From an uncultured Myxococcales bacterium (GTDB lineage: Bacteria > Myxococcota_A > UBA9042 > PWKZ01 > CAYRCM01): a stretch of 64,000 bases of DNA. Where the stretch lies: assembly GCA_964422715.1 (NCBI GenBank), contig CAYRCM010000008.1:1894-65893 (forward strand), written 5' to 3'. The notes beneath the pieces were generated by a model. It searched no databases. It worked only from the letters and a program-made list of their open reading frames with translations, and was not told the origin of the DNA. Both the position numbers and the translations under genes were made by a program. How positions within the stretch are numbered: position 1 is the first letter of the stretch; every line of letters begins with the position of its first letter. Shown piece by piece: positions 21,467-34,095 of this stretch.

Positions 21467-22996
21467 TCACGGCGCGGCGCCGATACGCGGCTCGACGACG
21501 AGCGGTGCCGTCGTGAGCGGCACTTCGGCAAAGCCGGCCACGACGTTGACGTCGCCCGTAACGCTCGGGATGCCGGCCCCGTCGGTGACGTAGCTCTCGT
21601 AGTGCGCTCGGCTGGCGTCGCCGACCGGCAGGAAGGCGCTGATGGGGGCCGTACCGGTCGTCCAGGCGACCACGCGGCGCAGGCCGCTGTGCCGGTCGCT
21701 GAACGCGTAGGCGCGCACTTCGGCCGGCAGTTCGGCCACGGGCCCGAGCCAGCGCGCGTGGCGCTCGTCGGTCGTCTGGACGAGCCGCTGCAGGGCGTAG
21801 AACGCCGCGCGCGGCGTGCCGAGCCGCGCGGGATCGGCCCCCGGGCCGGCCCCGTCGTCGATGAGCCCGACGCCGTTCATGGGGCTCTGCGGGTCGCCGC
21901 CGTAGTTGTACCAGTCGACGAGCCCGGCCCAGAGCACGCGGGTGGCCCCGGCGGCGCGGGCCCCGACAAGGCTGCGCACGAGCCAAGCGGCCTGGTCGGC
22001 CTCGGCCCGGACGGCGAGATCGGGACGCGGCTGGCCGGCGTAGGTGGACTGGACCAGCGAATAGAGCGCGGCGGACGAATAGCCATTGCGATCGAGCAGT
22101 TCACGAATGGCAGGGCCCTCGGGCAGGCCCTCGGCGGCGCCGGCGGCGCCGTAATCGGTGACGTGCACGTCGACGGCGTCGAAGGCCCCCTGGTCCTGCA
22201 ACGCGGCCACGACGGCGGACAGGTGGCTGCCCAGGTGGCCGAGCACGACGCGCCCCTGCGGGTCGGCGGCGCGGACAGCGCCCGCGAAAACCGCGACGAG
22301 CTCGGCATAGCGCTGCGGGCTCAACCGGTTCTGGGCGATGGCGTCGGCGGGGGCCTCCATGCACTGCCAGTAGCGCACGCGCACCTCGGGGGCGAGGTCG
22401 TCTTGGCCGTCGCCGTCGTAACGTTCGACCGCGGCGCGCGTGAACGCAGCAAAGCCCTCTTCGAAGCCGTCCGGAAAGACGGGACCCTCGGTGCCGTAGC
22501 GACTCGGGTCGACGATCAGGATGGCGTTGACGGTTTTCTCGGGCGCTGCGCGGAAGACGGCCTGGAGCGTCACGTCGGGGCCGGCGGCCTCGGCAAACGA
22601 TACGGCCGATGTCAGCGTGGGCTGCAGCCGCCCCCAGACGAGCAGGTTGCGCAGCGCCGTCCAGTGCACGTCGAGGGCCACGGCCTGGGTGTCGAGCCAG
22701 GCGCCGAAGGTCTCGTCGGTCAGGCCCAGCTGCTGGCGGAAGTAGGCGAATTCCTGCCCGTAGAGTTGGAACAGCCCGTAGCTCGCCTCTTCTTCGGGCA
22801 GGGGCGGCGGGGTCTCGGGCCCCGCATCGACCGTGTCCGGACCGGTGTCGGGCGGGCCGAGGTCGGGCGCCCCGAGGTCGGGGCCCGTGTCGGGCGCGGC
22901 GGCGTCGGGTGCGCCGGCAGCGCCGCCGCCGCACGCCGTGAGCGAGAGGAGAGCGACTGCGAGCACCGGGACCGCCGTTGCCATCGTCCAGCGCAT
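21467..22996 (-). CDS. Lipoprotein with glycoside-hydrolase clan A (GH39/GH5-like) fold, possibly inactive
   Basis: GGAGG RBS; lipobox LTA-C; PDxG linker; VERYDGDG..D, VRYWQ, VRAADPQGRVVLG, FDAVDVH, GLIDDG...TPRAAFYAL resemble GH39-like barrels. Confidence 0.65.
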   Translation of the reverse strand: MRWTMATAVPVLAVALLSLTACGGGAAGAPDAAAPDTGPDLGAPDLGPPDTGPDTVDAGPETPPPLPEEEASYGLFQLYGQEFAYFRQQLGLTDETFGAWLDTQAVALDVHWTALRNLLVWGRLQPTLTSAVSFAEAAGPDVTLQAVFRAAPEKTVNAILIVDPSRYGTEGPVFPDGFEEGFAAFTRAAVERYDGDGQDDLAPEVRVRYWQCMEAPADAIAQNRLSPQRYAELVAVFAGAVRAADPQGRVVLGHLGSHLSAVVAALQDQGAFDAVDVHVTDYGAAGAAEGLPEGPAIRELLDRNGYSSAALYSLVQSTYAGQPRPDLAVRAEADQAAWLVRSLVGARAAGATRVLWAGLVDWYNYGGDPQSPMNGVGLIDDGAGPGADPARLGTPRAAFYALQRLVQTTDERHARWLGPVAELPAEVRAYAFSDRHSGLRRVVAWTTGTAPISAFLPVGDASRAHYESYVTDGAGIPSVTGDVNVVAGFAEVPLTTAPLVVEPRIGAAP

Positions 22997-23062: not shown

Positions 23063-24034
23063 TCAGGGGACGGCGGGAGGCGCGGCGGGGCCCTCGGCCC
23101 GGCGCGCACGCCAGACGAGCAGCGCGCCGGTCGCGAGCACGATGGGCAGCCCAATCAGCTGCGACGTCGAGAGGACATCGCCAAACCAGAGGCCGCGCGC
23201 GTCGTCGCGCCAGAACTCGACGACGAAGCGCAGCAGCGCGTAGGCCAGCAGCATGCCGAGGAAGAGTTGCCCCGCGGGCCGCGGGCGGCGGCGCAGGAAC
23301 AGCCACAGGCACAGTCCGAAGATGAGCGCCGCGCCGGCCGCCTCGTAGAGCTGCGCCGGGTGCACGGGCAACGAACCCGCGGCGTGCGGCGACAGCAGGC
23401 CGAGCTCGACGTGGTGCTTGAAGGCCGGGCTGTCGAGCGGAAAGCGCAAGGCCCACGGCAAGCGGGTGGGCGCGCCGAAGCAGCACCCGGACAGCACGCA
23501 GCCGATGCGGCCGAACGTGAGCCCCAGCGGCACGCCGACGGCACAGAGATCGGCGAGCGCCCAAAACGAGAAGCGCCGCCAGCGGGCGAGCAGCAGCACG
23601 GCCGGCAAGGCCAGGATGGGTCCGCCGTAGTACGCCAGCCCGCCCTGCCACAGTTTGAACACGCGCAAACAGTCGGCCGCCGGGTAGCACAGCCCCGAGG
23701 CGGCGTCGCAGCGCGCGCCGGCCTTGCCGATGATGCACTGCGCGGCTTCGCGGCACGGCAGCCCGTAGGAGAGCGCGCGGCCCGGCAGCCGCTCCGGCTC
23801 GGTGCACAGATGCACGTAGTCCCAGAAGCCGCCGTCGGCGAGCACGTGCAGCAGCCGGGCGCCCAGGACGCCGAAGACGATCAGGACGAGGGCGGCGTCG
23901 AGGAAGTGGCGCTGGTCGAAGCCCGTACGCCCGGCGAGCCACCAGCCGAGCAGCACGGCCGCCATGAGCCCGAGGGTCAGCAGCGTGAAGTAGGCCGGCA
24001 GCTGCACGATGCCGAGGTCGATGACCGGCGCCAT
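23063..24034 (-). CDS. lgt: Prolipoprotein diacylglyceryl transferase with a 6-Cys insertion
   Basis: GARLLHV, WQGGLAYYGG, GRIGC..SGCCFG, HPAQLYE, YALLRFVVEFWR, STSQLI. Confidence 0.92.
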   Translation of the reverse strand: MAPVIDLGIVQLPAYFTLLTLGLMAAVLLGWWLAGRTGFDQRHFLDAALVLIVFGVLGARLLHVLADGGFWDYVHLCTEPERLPGRALSYGLPCREAAQCIIGKAGARCDAASGLCYPAADCLRVFKLWQGGLAYYGGPILALPAVLLLARWRRFSFWALADLCAVGVPLGLTFGRIGCVLSGCCFGAPTRLPWALRFPLDSPAFKHHVELGLLSPHAAGSLPVHPAQLYEAAGAALIFGLCLWLFLRRRPRPAGQLFLGMLLAYALLRFVVEFWRDDARGLWFGDVLSTSQLIGLPIVLATGALLVWRARRAEGPAAPPAVP

Positions 24035-24035
24035 G

Positions 24036-25070
24036 CTAGGAGGCGCGCTCCACGGACTTGCGCGCGTTGAAGGGGCTGGACTTGACGAAGAGCATCTCGG
24101 CGAGCAGCGCCACGACCCCGAGCGTGATGGCGATGTCGGCGACGTTGTACGTCGGCCAGTGACGGGTCCCGATGTACATGTCGATGTAGTCGATGACCAC
24201 GTGATAGAGCAGCCGGTCGACGAGGTTGCCCATGGCGCCGCCCAGGATGGCGGCAAACGCGATCATCGCCGAGCGGTGCCCGGGTTTGAGGCGCGCGTAG
24301 ATGACGAGGATGACGACGGCCGCAAGCGCCGAGATGAGCGTGAGGATGATGTGGCGGATGGACTCGGGCGCCGTGTTGAGGAACCCCCAAGCCGCACCCG
24401 GGTTTTCGGCGTAGATGAAGCGCAGGAAGCCCGGGATGAGCGTGACCGTGCGGTGCTGCAGCACGAAGAGGTCACCCGGGCGCACCGGCGCGGCGAGGTC
24501 GACGCCGAGCGTGGGCGCGCGGAGCGGGTAGGTGTAGCGCGCGGCCACCTCGACGGCGTCGTCCGGGTCGAGGGCGGGCACCCGTTCGCTCAGGAATTGC
24601 GCGAGCGACTTGCCTTTGTAGTGTTCGAGGACCCGGCTGCGGCGTTCGGCGGCCGACCAGTCGGGCCGGAGGTAGCTGAGCCAACGGTCGACGACGAGCG
24701 GTGTTTCGCGGTGCACGACGCGCGGCGCCAACGTCAGGTCCCGGCGGTGAAACGTGACGTACGCGAAAGCGGAACCGGGGGCAAACGCATCGGCGAACGC
24801 CGGGGCGGCCGGGTCGAGCCCCGGCGGCTCGCGCAGTTGCAGCAGGTTGTCCTTGAGCGCCGCATCGGTCGCGTCGTCGCCCGTGAGCCCGAAGCGCGCG
24901 ATGACCACGTCGCGCAACGGCCGGCCGGCTTCTTCGGGGGTGACGACGAGCGGCTGCGGGTGCTCGGGATTGGCGAGCACGCGGTCGGCCCACACCTTGC
25001 TCAGGAGGTCGGCCGCGACCACCAAGGCCACGGCGGCCACGAGAAACCAGTAGCGGCCAAAGCGCTTCAT
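24036..25070 (-). CDS. lspA: Signal peptidase II with a ~175-aa insertion (344 aa)
   Basis: ATGA overlap with ileS stop; DLLSK in TM1, ENPGAAWG, GAMGNLVDR, VIDYI, YNVAD (both catalytic Asp present). Confidence 0.9.
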   Translation of the reverse strand: MKRFGRYWFLVAAVALVVAADLLSKVWADRVLANPEHPQPLVVTPEEAGRPLRDVVIARFGLTGDDATDAALKDNLLQLREPPGLDPAAPAFADAFAPGSAFAYVTFHRRDLTLAPRVVHRETPLVVDRWLSYLRPDWSAAERRSRVLEHYKGKSLAQFLSERVPALDPDDAVEVAARYTYPLRAPTLGVDLAAPVRPGDLFVLQHRTVTLIPGFLRFIYAENPGAAWGFLNTAPESIRHIILTLISALAAVVILVIYARLKPGHRSAMIAFAAILGGAMGNLVDRLLYHVVIDYIDMYIGTRHWPTYNVADIAITLGVVALLAEMLFVKSSPFNARKSVERAS

Positions 25071-28000
25071 GCGTCCTCCGCGGGCGGTGCCATTTTGGCG
25101 ATGTGCACGGCAATGGCCTCTTTCTGGATGTCGAGCACGGTGAATCCCTCGGCGGCCTCGACCGGCCGGGCCTCGACGGCCAGCAACTCGGCCTGCACGT
25201 AGTCGCGGTGTTCGGCGAGCGCGCCGAGCAGCGTGTCGGAGGCCGTGTGATAGGCGAGCCGGATGCGGTCTTCCACTTCGAGGCCCTGGTCCTTGCGCAG
25301 CATCTGCACGCGCCGCACGAAGTCGCGCACGAGCCCTTCGCGGCGGAGCTCGTTGGTGAGCGTCGTGCGCACGGCGACGCGGCTGCCTGCGTCTTCGGCA
25401 ATGGCGAGGTCGCCCTCGGCCTGCCACGCGATGGCGACGTCGTCCGGCAGAATCTCGACCGGCGTGCCGTCGACGGTGAGCGTCGCGAGCCCGTCTTTGG
25501 CGAGCCGGGCGCGCAGCGACTCCGGGTCGGCGGCCTTGATGGCCGCGGCAACCGCCTGAACGTTCTTTGCAAAACGCGGGCCAAGGCGTTTGAAGTCGGG
25601 CTTGACCGACCAGGTGACGGGCAGCGTTTCGCCGGGTTTCAGCACGGTGACGCGCTTGACGTTGAGTTCGTCCATGAGCAGCGTGGCGAAGCGCTCGGCG
25701 GCGCGGGCCTCGGCGGCGTCGGCCGGTTGCACGAGCAGTTCGGCGAGCGGCTGGCGCACGCGCAGCCCGGCCTGGTTGCGGGCCGCGAGCCCCGCCGAGG
25801 TGAGGCGGATGGCCACCGCCATGTCGTTCATGAGCGCCTCGTCGACGAGGCCGGCCTCGAACGTTGGGAAGTCGCAGTGGTGCACGCTCTCGGGGGCCGT
25901 GCGGTCGTGGGCGCGCACGAGGTTCTGGTAGATGGCCTCGGTCACGTGCGGCACCATGGGCGCCAGCACCTGGACGAGCCCGACCAGGCATTCGTAGAGC
26001 GTCTCGTACGCCTGCACGCTGTCCTGCGATTCGCGACCGCGCCAGAACCGGCGACGGCTGCGCCGCACGTACCAGTTGCTCAGGTCGTCGATGAAGCGTT
26101 CGGCGGCGCGCCCGACCGCCCGGCAGTCGTAGCCGCCGAAGCCCTCGTGGGCCGTGCGGATGAGCTGCTGCAAGTGGCTGAGCGCCCAACGGTCGATGTC
26201 GGGCCGGCTGCCGGCCGGGCTGCGCTCGGCGGCGGGCACGTAGCCGTCGACGCGCGCATAGTTGACGAAGAAGGCGTAGGTATTCCAGAGCGTGTTGATG
26301 ACCTTGCCGCGCACCTCACGGCCGGCCGCGTAGCCGAAGTTGAGGTTGGCCGTGGGGTCCTGGCCGCAATAGATCCAGCGCATGACGTCGGCGCCCATCT
26401 GTTCGACCGCGTCGTCGAACCAGATGGCGTTGCCGAGGCTCTTGTGCATCTCGCGGCCCTGCTCGTCGCGGACGAGCGCGTGGCCGAGCAGCGTGCGGAA
26501 CGGCGCGCGGCCCTCGATCATGGTGCTCATGGCAAGCAGGGCGTAGAACCAGTTGCGGAACTGCCCGGGGAAGCATTCGAGCACGAGATCGGCCGGAAAC
26601 CACTGCTCCCAGTACGCGCGGTCTTCGTGGTAGCCCATGGTCGAGTAGGGCACGATGCCGGCGTCGAGCCAGGGGTTGCCGACGTCTTCGACGCGCCGCA
26701 TGCGGCCGCCGCATTGGGGACAGGCGAGTTCGACGGCGTCGATCCAGGGGCGGTGCGGCGTGTGCCCGGCGAGCGCATCGAGCCCGGCGACGGCGCGGCT
26801 GTCGAGTTCGGCGCGGCTGCCGATGACGTCGAAATGGCCGCAGCCGGACGTACGGCACACCCAGATGGGCAGGGCCAGCCCCCAGTAGCGCTTCTTCGAG
26901 ATCATCCAGTCGCGCATGTTGCGCAGCCAGTCGAGTTCGAGTTCCTTGCCAAACGCCGGAATCCAGCGGATGTGCTCGACGACGTCCATGATTTCCTGTT
27001 TCCAGGGGGCCATGGCGATGAACCACTCGTCGACGAGCCGGAACAGCAGTTCGGAGCCGCAGCGCCAGCAGTGCGGGTAGCTGTGCGGGTAGCGCTCGAC
27101 GTGCACGAGCAGGGCCTTCTTTTCGAGCGCCGCGAGGATGCGGTCGGTGGTCTCGTGCGACTGCGCGTGCTGCGCCACGAGCCAGTCGAAGCCCGCCACG
27201 TAGTGGCCTTCCTCGTCGAGCGGGGCGATGGCGACGAGCCCGTGTTCGCGGCCGAGTTCGTAGTCCTCTTTGCCGCAGCCGGGGGCGATGTGCACGATGC
27301 CGGTGCCTTCGCTGTCGGACACGAGCGCCCAGGGGATGACGCGGTGGCAGGTGGTGCCCTGACGGTCTTTGAGCGTGGCGTCGTACGGCACGCCGCCCGG
27401 CGTCTGCTGGGCCGGCAGATCGTCGAACGGGCCGTCGTACGTCCAGCCCACGAGCTCAGAGCCGAGCACCGTCCCGAGCACTTCGAAGCCCCCGCGGCTT
27501 TTCAGGAATTCGGCGGGACTCTGGAGCGGCGGCACGCCTTCGACCCAGCCACCGCCGGCCACGCCGGCGCGGAAGTCGGCGTCTTTGCGCCGCAGTTCGA
27601 GGGTGCCGGCGGCCAGGTAGTAGACGTCGCCGCCGGCCCGCACGCGGGCGTACACGAGGTCGGGGTGGACGGCCGCGGCCACGTTGGACGTGAACGTCCA
27701 CGGCGTGGTGGTCCACACGAGCAGGAACTCGCGGTCCCGGCCGCGCAGCGGGAAGCGCAGGAAAACGGCCCGATGCGCGGTGAGCTTGTAGCCCTCGTGC
27801 ATCTCCATCTGGGAAAGCCCGACGCCGCAGCGCGCGCACCACGGCATGACGTCGGTGCCGCGGTAGACGAGCCCGCGCTCGTGGCATTTCTTCAGGAAAT
27901 TCCAGATGGCGTAGTTGTTGCCGGGCGACATCGTGTAGTACGAGTCGCTCCAGTCCATCCAGTAGCCAAGCCGCTCCGACTGCTTCGTCTGCACGGCCGA

Positions 28001-28381
28001 GAAGCGCCGCACGCGCTCCATGCACTTCTCGACGAAGGCGCCGATGCCGTAGGCGTCGATGTCGCGCTTGCTGCGGAAGCCGAGTTCCTTCTCGACTTCG
28101 ACTTCGACCCACAGGCCCTGGCAGTCGAAGCCGTTCTGGTAGCGCAACGCATGGCCGGTCATGGCCTGGTAGCGCTGGTAGACGTCCTTGAGCGTGCGGC
28201 CCCAGGCGTGGTGCACGCCCATGGGGTTGTTGGCCGTGATGGGGCCGTCGAGAAACGAGTAGCGCGGCCCGCCGGCGCGCAACGCCCGCAGTTTGTCGAA
28301 GGCCTTCGTTTCGGTCCAGAACGCCTGGATGTCGTGTTCCAGGTGAACGATGTCGAACCACGGATCGACCTTGTGGTACAT
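25067..28381 (-). CDS. ileS: Isoleucine--tRNA ligase, type 2, with non-canonical GVHH and EMHKS motifs
   Basis: DGPITANNPMGVHH, GFDCQGL, editing VWTTTPWT and GTGIVHIAP, HSYPHCWR, DWMISKKRYWG, DLSNWYVRRSR, type-2 C-terminal EGLVRDFVRRVQMLRK; precedes lspA. Confidence 0.95.
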   Translation of the reverse strand: MYHKVDPWFDIVHLEHDIQAFWTETKAFDKLRALRAGGPRYSFLDGPITANNPMGVHHAWGRTLKDVYQRYQAMTGHALRYQNGFDCQGLWVEVEVEKELGFRSKRDIDAYGIGAFVEKCMERVRRFSAVQTKQSERLGYWMDWSDSYYTMSPGNNYAIWNFLKKCHERGLVYRGTDVMPWCARCGVGLSQMEMHEGYKLTAHRAVFLRFPLRGRDREFLLVWTTTPWTFTSNVAAAVHPDLVYARVRAGGDVYYLAAGTLELRRKDADFRAGVAGGGWVEGVPPLQSPAEFLKSRGGFEVLGTVLGSELVGWTYDGPFDDLPAQQTPGGVPYDATLKDRQGTTCHRVIPWALVSDSEGTGIVHIAPGCGKEDYELGREHGLVAIAPLDEEGHYVAGFDWLVAQHAQSHETTDRILAALEKKALLVHVERYPHSYPHCWRCGSELLFRLVDEWFIAMAPWKQEIMDVVEHIRWIPAFGKELELDWLRNMRDWMISKKRYWGLALPIWVCRTSGCGHFDVIGSRAELDSRAVAGLDALAGHTPHRPWIDAVELACPQCGGRMRRVEDVGNPWLDAGIVPYSTMGYHEDRAYWEQWFPADLVLECFPGQFRNWFYALLAMSTMIEGRAPFRTLLGHALVRDEQGREMHKSLGNAIWFDDAVEQMGADVMRWIYCGQDPTANLNFGYAAGREVRGKVINTLWNTYAFFVNYARVDGYVPAAERSPAGSRPDIDRWALSHLQQLIRTAHEGFGGYDCRAVGRAAERFIDDLSNWYVRRSRRRFWRGRESQDSVQAYETLYECLVGLVQVLAPMVPHVTEAIYQNLVRAHDRTAPESVHHCDFPTFEAGLVDEALMNDMAVAIRLTSAGLAARNQAGLRVRQPLAELLVQPADAAEARAAERFATLLMDELNVKRVTVLKPGETLPVTWSVKPDFKRLGPRFAKNVQAVAAAIKAADPESLRARLAKDGLATLTVDGTPVEILPDDVAIAWQAEGDLAIAEDAGSRVAVRTTLTNELRREGLVRDFVRRVQMLRKDQGLEVEDRIRLAYHTASDTLLGALAEHRDYVQAELLAVEARPVEAAEGFTVLDIQKEAIAVHIAKMAPPAEDA

Positions 28382-31455: not shown

Positions 31456-34095
31456 CTACATGCAGGCGGTGCGGCAGGTGTCGCTCGGCAGGAAGCACCA
31501 GGCGTTCGGGTCGTCGGGGCAGGGCGCGTAGCAGGGCTCGGTGCCTTCGGTCAGCAGCGCGCAGCGCAGGCCCGGCGGGCAGTCGGCGTCGGCGCGGCAG
31601 CCTTCGTAGGCCGGGCTGCACTGGCCATAGCAGCGCTCGTAGCAGACGCCGTTTTCGCACGCGGTGACACAGGTCACTGCGTCGTCGGCCCAGGAGCAGA
31701 AGTAGCCGTCGCGGCAGGTGCTGTCGTCGGTGCAGGCGTCTTCGCCAACGAGCGGCACGCAGACCCCGACGCAGGCCGGCATGTCGCAGTTTTCGCCTTC
31801 GGGGCAATCCCAGCCGCACGTGTCGGGGTCGATCTCGCAAGCCTCACCCGACGCGCAGTCAGCGTCGGCGTAGCAGGGGGTGGGCGGCGGCGTGACGGCA
31901 GTGCAGGTGCCGGGGCAGTATTCGGGCACGCCGCCACCGTCGGGCGGCCAGTAGCCGCAGTTCGGGTCGGGCATGCACACTTCGCCGGCCGGGCAGTCGG
32001 CATCGGCGAAGCAGGCGTTCTCGATGGGCACGCAGTAGCCGCCGCACCAGCTGGGCTCGCTTGGGTCGCTGCCCGGGCACGACCAGGAATCGAACTGGCA
32101 ACGCTCGCCCGGCGCGCACTCGGCGTCGGAGTAGCAGACACCGGAGAGCGGCAGGCACACGCCGGGCTGCGGCAGGAAGTCGGGGTCGGGATTGTCACGC
32201 GGCAGGGCACAGTACTCGCCGGCGGGGCAGTCGGTGTCGCTCCAGCAACCCGGCTCGACCGGCACGCACCAGCCGCCGCACGGCATGGGGTCGCCTTCGG
32301 GGAGGGCCGGGTCGTAGCCCCAGCCGCAGTTCGGGTCGTACTGGCAGAGGGCGCCCGTGCCGCAGTCGGCGTCGGACCAGCATTCGTAGGCCATGGGCAC
32401 GCACACGCCGCCGCAGTAAGCCGGCATGCCGTCGGGGGCGTCGGGGTCGTATTCGGCGCCGCCGCAGTAACTGCCGTCGAACTGACACATCATGCCGGGC
32501 CCGCAATCGGCATCGGAGAAGCACTCGGCCGGACGCGCGACGCAGATCCCGGGGCAGTAGGCGCGGTCGGTCTCGGGCGCGTTCGGGTCGCCGTCGAAGC
32601 CGCCGCAGTAGCTCGTGTCGAACTGGCACATCATGCCGGCGGGGCAGTCGGTATCGGAGAAGCATTCGCGCTGCACGGCCACGCAGAACCCGCCGCAACC
32701 GATGCGCAGGCCCTCTTCGGGCGGTACGGCCGGGTCGTTGTAGCCGCAGTTCGGATCGAGCTGGCACACCATGCCGGCACCGCACTGGTCGTCGCTGTAG
32801 CATTCGTAGGCGATGGGCACGCAGATGCCGCCGCACGCGATATCGGCCTGCGGCGCGCCGGAAGCATCGTCACCCGCGGCCCACGTGCCGCAGTAGGTGG
32901 GGTCGATCTGGCAGTACATGCCGGCGCCGCAGTCGGCGTCGGACCAGCACTGCGGCGTGGTCGGGATGCACACGCCACCGCAGCGGGGCGGTGCGAAGGC
33001 CGCATCGCCCTCGCCCGCCGGAACGGGCTCGGCGCCACAGTTCGCCCAGTCGATGTTGCAGACGGACCCGGCGTTGCAGTCGGCGTCGGACCAGCATTCG
33101 ACCGGACGCACGACGCAGACACCGCCGCAGTAGGCCGGCATCCCGGCCGGGTCGCCCGGGGCGTAGTCGCCCCCCGCGCAGTAGTCGTTCGTGAACTGGC
33201 ACATCATGCCGGGGCCGCAGTCGGCGTCGGACCAACATTCGACCGGCGGCTCGTACGGCACGCACACGCCGCTGCAGGCCACGAACTTGTCGCCGTCCAT
33301 GCCCGGCTCGTTGGGCCATGCACCGCAGTTGGTCTCATCGATCTGGCAGATGGTGCCCGGGCGACAATCGGCGTCGGACCAGCATTCGACCGGCGGCTCA
33401 TAGGGTACGCACACGCCGCCGCAACGCGGCATGGCCTCGCCCGAGCCCTCGCCGGCCGGCGCGAAGTCGCCACAGCGGTCGCCCGAGAACTCGCACACCC
33501 TACCGGGGCCGCAGTCGGCGTCGGACCAGCACTCGACCGGCGGCTCGTAGGGCACGCACACGCCGCCGCAACGCGGCATGGCGTCGCCCGTGCCGTCTTC
33601 GGCCGGCATGTAGCCGCAGCGGTCGCCCGAAAACTCGCACACCATGCCGGGGCCGCAGTCGGCGTCGGACCAGCACGTTTGCGGGAACAGGCACTCGCCG
33701 TTGACGCACTGGCCGCCATCCGGACAGTCGCTGTCGGCGCGGCATTCGACCGGGTCGGCGACGCACTCGCCATAGCAGACGTTGCAGTCGGGACAGTCGG
33801 GAGGCACCTCGCAGGCGCCGTCGGACACGCTGCAGTGCTCGCCGGCGCCGCAGTCGGCGTTGGAGTAGCAGCCGTCGCCCGGCTCGCCGTCGATGCACAG
33901 GCACGCGCCGTTCTCACAGGCCCAACGGCCGTCGCAGGGCCCGGCCGCGGCGCAGTCGGCGTCGCTCACGCAGCCCGGGGCGTCTTCGTCGGGTGCCCCA
34001 CAGGTGGGCCCGGTGTTGCCGGCCACGAAAAGCAGCAGGGCCGCGATACCAAAGCCCTGCCAGAGCCAGCCGCCGATCGTTCGTTTCGTTTGCAT
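31456..34095 (-). CDS. Exported Cys-rich tandem-repeat protein (879 aa, ~19 C-x-SD-x-D-C units)
   Basis: GAGGAGG RBS before ATG 34095; N-terminal hydrophobic segment ending GPT-C (atypical lipobox); repeated CWSDADCGxGxxC...C...CGGVC. Confidence 0.85.
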   Translation of the reverse strand: MQTKRTIGGWLWQGFGIAALLLFVAGNTGPTCGAPDEDAPGCVSDADCAAAGPCDGRWACENGACLCIDGEPGDGCYSNADCGAGEHCSVSDGACEVPPDCPDCNVCYGECVADPVECRADSDCPDGGQCVNGECLFPQTCWSDADCGPGMVCEFSGDRCGYMPAEDGTGDAMPRCGGVCVPYEPPVECWSDADCGPGRVCEFSGDRCGDFAPAGEGSGEAMPRCGGVCVPYEPPVECWSDADCRPGTICQIDETNCGAWPNEPGMDGDKFVACSGVCVPYEPPVECWSDADCGPGMMCQFTNDYCAGGDYAPGDPAGMPAYCGGVCVVRPVECWSDADCNAGSVCNIDWANCGAEPVPAGEGDAAFAPPRCGGVCIPTTPQCWSDADCGAGMYCQIDPTYCGTWAAGDDASGAPQADIACGGICVPIAYECYSDDQCGAGMVCQLDPNCGYNDPAVPPEEGLRIGCGGFCVAVQRECFSDTDCPAGMMCQFDTSYCGGFDGDPNAPETDRAYCPGICVARPAECFSDADCGPGMMCQFDGSYCGGAEYDPDAPDGMPAYCGGVCVPMAYECWSDADCGTGALCQYDPNCGWGYDPALPEGDPMPCGGWCVPVEPGCWSDTDCPAGEYCALPRDNPDPDFLPQPGVCLPLSGVCYSDAECAPGERCQFDSWSCPGSDPSEPSWCGGYCVPIENACFADADCPAGEVCMPDPNCGYWPPDGGGVPEYCPGTCTAVTPPPTPCYADADCASGEACEIDPDTCGWDCPEGENCDMPACVGVCVPLVGEDACTDDSTCRDGYFCSWADDAVTCVTACENGVCYERCYGQCSPAYEGCRADADCPPGLRCALLTEGTEPCYAPCPDDPNAWCFLPSDTCRTACM
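31460..33972 (-). repeat. Coding tandem repeat, ~47-50-aa period; youngest copies have a 147-bp period
   Basis: CGACCGGCGGCTC recurs at 33240, 33387 and 33534; GCAGTCGGCGTCGGACCA recurs several times. Confidence 0.85.

Follow-up and report, generated by a model that had tools for sequence, protein, structure and literature searches.

A 64,000-nucleotide stretch of an uncultured Myxococcales genome (contig CAYRCM010000008.1; the window) carries an ileS-lspA-lgt operon on its reverse strand, and the lgt product is a member of the Lgt family with a cysteine-rich insertion (Table 1). Lgt (phosphatidylglycerol:prolipoprotein diacylglyceryl transferase), an antibiotic target, performs the committed step in the maturation of bacterial lipoproteins. 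A sequence-only reading of the window had placed a six-Cys insertion just before the W.GG motif of this protein, and translation reproduces its residues, spacing and coordinates. The cysteines fall at residues 77, 94, 100, 109, 116 and 122 with spacings of 16-5-8-6-5, and the codons from C122 to C77 occupy exactly 23669-23806. The W129-Q-G-G132...Y-Y-G-G138 motif begins six residues past C122. The other cysteines of the protein are residues 164, 179, 184, 185 and 242.

Table 1. Features of the lgt gene and its operon in the window (positions are those of the whole stretch; E. coli equivalents follow the 5AZB alignment)
Feature	Coordinates	Strand	Remarks
lgt paralogue, 323 aa, seven transmembrane helices, N146C/E151C-type signature, bears the insertion	23063..24034	-	Pfam LGT, AlphaFold2, Foldseek, phmmer
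Lgt signature motif G175-R-I-G-C179-V-L-S-G-C184-C185-F-G187, GRIGCVLSGCCFG	23474..23512	-	E. coli G142-R143-L-G-N146-F-I-N-G-E151-L-W-G154
W129-Q-G-G-L-A-Y-Y136-G-G138	23621..23650	-	E. coli W96-D-G98-G99-M-S-F-H103-G-G; H103 replaced by Tyr
Six-Cys module C77-x16-C94-x5-C100-x8-C109-x6-C116-x5-C122	23669..23806	-	modal spacing among homologues
43-residue insertion, residues 79-121, arm-2 tip, four internal Cys	23672..23800	-	periplasmic knob
Insert core C94..C116, degenerate CREAAQC...GARCDAASGLC	23687..23755	-	family consensus C-x-[ST]-D-A-[QD]-C-x(n)-G-x-x-C-x(3)-G-x-C
Arm-2 helix alpha1, residues 67-78, DGGFWDYVHLCT, ends in C77 (outer staple Cys)	23801..23836	-	AlphaFold2 helix 70-78
lspA, 344 aa, Pfam Peptidase_A8 5e-34	24036..25070	-	1 nt upstream of lgt
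ileS, first gene of the ileS-lspA-lgt operon	25067..28381	-	open reading frame; stop overlaps lspA start

Sequence comparison and modelling identify the lgt product as a genuine Lgt-family enzyme. It matches Pfam LGT (PF01790) at 1.2e-53 (182.4 bits against a cut-off of 24.9), with the insertion splitting the match into two stretches, and in a phmmer search of PDB sequences, residues 119-313 pair with residues 87-286 of E. coli Lgt (5AZB, 4.4e-24). An AlphaFold2 (AF2) model built with 143 homologues as input has a mean predicted local distance difference test score (pLDDT) of 95.7, and its sole significant Foldseek match is E. coli Lgt 5AZB (E 8e-11, TM-score 0.67/0.75, identity ~24%). Model and match together give the Lgt fold of seven transmembrane (TM) helices with arms and a periplasmic head. 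The E. coli structures (PDB 5AZB/5AZC; Mao et al. 2016, PMC4728403) share this fold, including the arm-1 hairpin, arm-2 and an N-out/C-in orientation, and the W-x-GG...GG motif at the start of TM3; the head domain of the window protein is shorter. Residue equivalences were read off the 5AZB alignment. R176 (R143 in E. coli), G187 (G154), R269 (R239) and R276 (R246) are invariant in the 143 sequences, and Y15 (Y26), Y265 (Y235) and E273 (E243), together with G132, Y136, G137 and G138, are conserved in at least 90% of them.

The insertion lies at the tip of arm-2, as the 5AZB alignment and the description of the E. coli arm (PMC4728403) indicate. In the E. coli structure, arm-2 comprises ~20 periplasmic, amphipathic residues between TM2 and TM3 (alpha1 and eta2), and a front cleft between arm-1 and arm-2, the proposed route of substrate entry, leads to the active-site cavity (PMC4728403). 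W129, G131 and G132 of the window protein align with W96, G98 and G99, and Y136 with H103. The extra residues fall between alpha1, which ends in C77, and eta2, which starts after C122. Between the same anchor points, the lgt product has 81 residues and six cysteines, whereas the corresponding stretch of E. coli Lgt is 35 residues long and lacks cysteine (residues 87-286 of the E. coli sequence are confirmed by the 5AZB alignment). The module is absent from E. coli-type Lgt, as the sequence-only reading had stated, and from most other Lgt. The distribution of charge agrees independently with homology that the TM2-TM3 loop is periplasmic, since the short TM1-2, TM3-4 and TM5-6 loops and the C-terminus carry +2 to +4 Lys/Arg with almost no acidic residues. 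A cytoplasmic location, which would have undermined the sequence-only reading, is therefore contradicted by both lines of evidence.

Structure prediction, which the sequence-only reading had proposed as a check, returns a confident and compact fold for the insertion, with pLDDT values of 96-98 across it. The arm-2 helix spans residues 70-78, a short helix at 97-102 holds C100, and a beta-hairpin formed by residues 108-110 and 115-117 holds C109 and C116. The arm-2 fragment modelled alone (AF2, pLDDT 84-90 in the knob) has no Foldseek match in the PDB.

The cysteine pattern recurs among relatives of the protein. In a set of 235 homologues that match a search pattern for the arm type (from the end of TM2, ...DG..., to W-x-GG), arms have six cysteines (126 proteins), four (95), two (6), none (4) or an odd number (4), so that the count is even in 227. 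The 16-5-8-6-5 spacing of the window protein is the commonest, occurring in 64 of the 126 six-Cys homologues. This modal spacing and the even counts argue that the six-Cys pattern is not due to chance. The second gap measures 5 residues in all six-Cys forms; a fourth gap of 6 and a fifth gap of 5 occur in 122 and 124 of the 126, respectively.

The way in which cysteines are lost suggests how they are paired. In four-Cys forms, the equivalents of C94 and C109 are missing together, Trp occupies the C109 position in 90 of 95, and the distance between C100 and C116 is held at exactly 15 residues. Two-Cys forms retain only the C77 and C122 equivalents, and C77 is invariant in the alignment of homologues. 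These co-loss patterns, which are the whole basis for the assignment, imply a nested arrangement in which C77-C122 would act as an outer staple around C100-C116 and C94-C109. Oxidation of such pairs is consistent with the gene content of the organism. The genome encodes two VKOR homologues, which point to a periplasmic disulfide-forming system; no DsbB was found in the genome searched. The many Cys-rich exported proteins of this genome presumably need a VKOR-based oxidation pathway as well.

Two other uses of the cysteines can be weighed against the same data. Six conserved cysteines within 46 residues could bind Zn or an Fe-S cluster rather than form disulfides. This is extremely improbable given the periplasmic location, the lack of a CxxC or His ligand pattern, and the strict loss of cysteines in pairs to leave four or two, which fits disulfides and not a metal site. 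The sequence-only reading had instead offered a redox-gated lid, in which reversible oxidation and reduction of the cysteines would open and close the cleft and couple lipidation to the periplasmic redox state. The module is indeed periplasmic and adjoins the proposed entry cleft, but redox gating finds no support in the data: the insert contains no CxxC or other vicinal redox motif, pairs that are nested, co-vary and keep an invariant spacing are characteristic of structural disulfides, AF2 gives a single compact and confident fold, and whole pairs are dispensable in the four- and two-Cys relatives. Such gating is accordingly rated very unlikely.

The insertion is widespread and strongly conserved. 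It occurs at the same site in all 120 of the best database homologues (40-52% identity), which, where named, are assigned to Myxococcales, Polyangiaceae or Myxococcota, and in more than 220 homologues overall, all labelled Myxococcota or obviously mis-binned. The statement, in the earlier reading, that some myxobacterial Lgt proteins have similar insertions was correct, and an unconserved loop, which would have told against that reading, is not what the alignments show. In a scan of one genome per species, 415 relatives were found, and the best 80 of the 415 come from Myxococcota metagenome-assembled genomes (MAGs), a few of them obviously mislabelled. Three loci with contigs of the Myxococcota lspA-lgt type (L011, L013, L015) carry the labels ‘uncultured Enterobacteriaceae’ or ‘Klebsiella pneumoniae’ MAG, probably through mislabelling or mis-binning. 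Use of a second family member as homology query recovered MAG and metagenome proteins only and no named cultured strain. Full-text literature searches found no description of a six-Cys insertion in arm-2 of Lgt in the papers that they covered. The six-Cys knob is common to many uncultured Myxococcota.

Across a representative library, the arms form a series: ~34 residues between the anchors where there is no insert, 44-55 with two cysteines, 72-74 with four and 77-88 with six, with a few forms of 100-130 residues. Within the six-Cys proteins, mean pairwise identity of the insertion is 46% (40% without the cysteines), compared with 43% for the head domain and 49% for TM5-7. Conservation within the protein peaks in the flanks of the insertion, at 77% for arm-2 alpha1 and 72% for eta2/W-x-GG. 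Of 121 evenly sampled Myxococcota genomes, 48 have a single full-length match to the arm-2 region, among them 21 of the 22 from the class to which the window belongs. In a tree calculated without the insert columns, the cysteine state is strongly clustered (26 changes versus 70.8 when shuffled), and four-Cys forms fall mostly into one clade among six-Cys lineages. This tree is weakly resolved at depth, too weakly to order cysteine gains and losses firmly.

The tip of arm-2 seems to be a hot spot for insertions in general. Three homologues (P0141, P0183, P0155) have knobs of 100-130 residues with a helical-looking segment between Cys pairs, and P0155 has eight cysteines. Eight others (P0147, P0157, P0160, P0184, P0204, P0219, P0223, P0226) have a Cys-free insertion of 100-200 residues with long hydrophobic stretches, which may form two extra membrane helices.

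The knob could be a pure stabilizer or neutral decoration that rigidifies a lineage-specific loop in the oxidizing periplasm and has no effect on the substrates used. Arm swaps between E. coli and Enterococcus faecalis Lgt with little functional loss (PMC13251419) fit this explanation, as do the loss of Cys pairs in whole clades of four- and two-Cys forms while the gene persists, and the many unrelated insertions at the arm-2 tip. It is harder to reconcile with a knob that is kept with fixed spacing, at one copy per genome, in a large part of the phylum, and whose residues other than Cys match the head domain in conservation. Moreover, paralogues within the same operon differ precisely in arm-2 (see below). 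On balance, a knob without effect on substrate use is rather unlikely.

The origin of the knob core is a separate question. The sequence-only reading had noted that the core echoes the Cys modules of the surface protein encoded at 31456-34095 of the window, which matches Dickkopf_N (1.5e-11) and, in 17 stretches, TIGR04201 Myxo_Cys_RPT (1.5e-38). This likeness holds for the family and fails for the individual copy. The window insert scores -3.0 bits against a hidden Markov model (HMM) of the neighbor's units, no better than shuffled controls, and has no Pfam or NCBIfam match; it is too degenerate and has lost the S-D-A-D signature. On the other hand, hhalign aligns a profile of the six-Cys core with the profile of the neighbor's units at 95% probability, and its score of 27.8 exceeds all those from 200 permutations of the columns that preserved the cysteines (highest, 20.7). 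In the first C-x5-C, the family consensus is C-[A]-[TS]-D-A-[QD]-C, versus C-[WYF]-S-D-A-D-C in the neighbor. The family core as a whole (C-x-[ST]-D-A-[QD]-C...G-x-x-C...G-x-C) has the motif and Cys order of the Myxo_Cys_RPT/Dickkopf_N repeats. Unlike these repeats, the knob is a single unit within a membrane enzyme, with a probable extra outer disulfide around it. The insert of one homologue reaches 1.2e-3 (18.9 bits) against TIGR04201, the best such score, and those of two reach 0.015 and 0.11 (16.1 and 13.3 bits) against Dickkopf_N. These matches lie below the cut-off of 25 bits in both cases, and sub-threshold matches to EGF_3, CarbpepA_inh and others also occur. At the family level, the knob core thus seems to be of the same sequence type as the Myxo_Cys_RPT repeats, whether by capture or by convergence.

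A more specific proposal is that a Myxo_Cys_RPT unit, a surface-rod repeat of the TraA-stalk type, was captured as a docking surface for LspA or for Cys-repeat (lipo)protein substrates. The profile likeness beyond Cys spacing would be expected from such an event, as would the matches of homologous inserts to the same two families as the neighbor. Likewise, Myxo_Cys_RPT matches occur in 44 of 48 insert-bearing versus 33 of 73 insert-free genomes (Fisher 8e-8), a co-occurrence that is only suggestive given shared ancestry and weak single matches. However, every HMM match is under its curated cut-off, the window copy has none, and short motifs of this kind converge easily. Nor is there an obligate pairing of LspA with the knob: the N-terminal part of the window's LspA is enlarged, and tblastn with this part finds matches in only ~8 of 80 related loci. 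Capture as a docking surface is improbable on this evidence.

The window lspA, directly upstream of lgt, is the only Peptidase_A8 match in the whole genome (assembly ~95% complete), with its Peptidase_A8 core at ~207-328 (217-338 of the 354-aa stretch scanned) and ~170 extra residues after TM1. The ileS/lspA junction is ATGA (25067-25070) and the lspA/lgt junction (24032-24038) is TAG-C-ATG, with a single base between the genes and no visible Shine-Dalgarno sequence. These junctions indicate translational coupling along ileS-lspA-lgt. Among 74 related loci with enough flanking sequence, lspA lies directly upstream of the insert-type lgt on the same strand in 63, and ileS precedes lspA in 15. 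A lipobox protein (MRWTMATAVPVLAVALLSLTAC...) is the product of the gene at 21467-22996 on the same strand, which lies 66 bp downstream of lgt and has its own GGGAGG ribosome-binding site.

The genome contains three Lgt paralogues, and the knob is found in one only. Neither of the other two (L001, G000:C6:242-1015; L003, G000:C156:8273-9007) has it. One of them is of the canonical N146 type (RIGNFLNGEVVG). The other is of the GRLGCTVAHDHPG (GRLGC) type, in which W-S-G-I-S-S-V-G-G replaces W-x-GG..YGG, and has no insert. Match counts for PF01790 suggest additional Lgt paralogues in insert-bearing genomes. In a large-genome Myxococcota family, three loci (L085, L086 and L087; G118:C56, G103:C9 and G073:C407) have the operon lspA, lgt(6-Cys), lgt(2-Cys), the second lgt encoding a two-Cys stapled loop, ‘YPC...x22...PDC’. 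Two paralogues of the same operon therefore differ chiefly in arm-2. A canonical N146-type lgt had been expected in tandem in this family; the three loci show the two-Cys, N146C-type paralogue instead. L086 also has two consecutive lspA-like matches upstream.

Taken together, sequence and model provide good support for a periplasmic arm-2 extension, constitutive and stapled by disulfides, in an Lgt-family paralogue that is linked to the sole LspA detected. The 43-residue knob would enlarge arm-2, one wall of the proposed front cleft. C77-C122 would connect the end of alpha1 with the beginning of the short helix that precedes W-x-GG and so preserve the canonical geometry of the arm, and C100-C116 and C94-C109 would tie the short helix of the knob to its beta-hairpin. 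All three would be constitutive structural disulfides made by periplasmic oxidative folding. The knob would then be the hallmark of one Lgt paralogue lineage, widespread in Myxococcota, normally co-transcribed with lspA and present beside paralogues with other arms. By shaping access to the front cleft, it could help to set which preprolipoproteins this paralogue lipidates, or how efficiently.

The functional part of this proposal draws on work with the E. coli enzyme. Arm-2, H103 and the head domain set the specificity for protein substrates in E. coli Lgt (PMC4728403, PMC13251419). Since arm-2 borders the front cleft and contributes to this specificity, the substrate-recognition lid put forward in the sequence-only reading is plausible, and by analogy the knob probably tunes substrate access or selectivity at the cleft. 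The reading as a whole, a disulfide-stabilized arm-2 knob that shapes front-cleft access of an Lgt paralogue, is favored with moderate confidence.

Three observations weigh against it. First, the four- and two-Cys forms indicate that parts of the module are dispensable. Second, the lgt product scores 107.4 bits against the NCBIfam equivalog TIGR00544, just under the cut-off of 118.9, and by NCBI rules it is named a family protein and not an equivalog. Third, two residues that are essential in E. coli, N146 and H103, are not retained: C179 and Y136 occupy these positions. E. coli Lgt with N146A or H103A/N/Q/R/Y does not complement (PMC4728403, PMC13251419), although H103Q gives partial growth in a delta-lgt delta-lpp strain (PMC13251419). 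Since E. coli mutants at these positions fail, the chemistry of the lgt product may differ in detail.

The same substitutions have natural precedents. N146C, E151C and H103Y occur as natural variants in distant Lgt, often as additional paralogues, and the N146C enzyme of Leptospira has been suggested to contain a stabilizing disulfide (Legood et al. 2026, PMC13251419). The window protein resembles the N146C/E151C-type Lgt of Leptospira interrogans and Mycobacterium smegmatis (MSMEG_5408) described there in having Cys at the N146 position, a second Cys nearby with which it may form a stabilizing disulfide in the signature motif, and an aromatic residue at the H103 position. The E151 position is C184, and the signature-motif cysteines may form a disulfide in place of the N146-E151 hydrogen-bond pair. 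In the 143 sequences, R176, C179 and G187 of this motif are invariant and C184 and C185 are conserved in at least 90%. The C179/C184/C185 motif is kept in relatives with and without the insert, and this subfamily is far wider than the knob. Unlike the window protein, the N146C/E151C-type Lgt are described with no mention of a Cys-rich arm-2 insertion, and the sole comment on Myxococcales in that study concerns a subgroup without R143 and R239, both of which the window protein retains (PMC13251419).

Recent work on how Lgt recognizes its protein substrates singles out arm-2, H103 and the head domain as determinants. The Lgt paralogues of Myxococcota form a natural, phylum-wide series that differs mainly in the arm-2 module (none, two, four or six cysteines) and thereby supplies ready-made arm-2 variants. 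A bolder extension would make the knob a captured Myxo_Cys_RPT unit dedicated to the lipidation of Cys-rich or otherwise special exported proteins, with lipoproteomes split among paralogues distinguished by their arm-2 (six-, four- or two-Cys, or none); this is a distinctly doubtful prospect. If the knob is without effect, the series would still be a clear example of a loop insertion accommodated by a disulfide-closed base in a membrane enzyme. The series is also relevant to the retention of several Lgt genes by Myxococcota, which have hundreds of lipoproteins.

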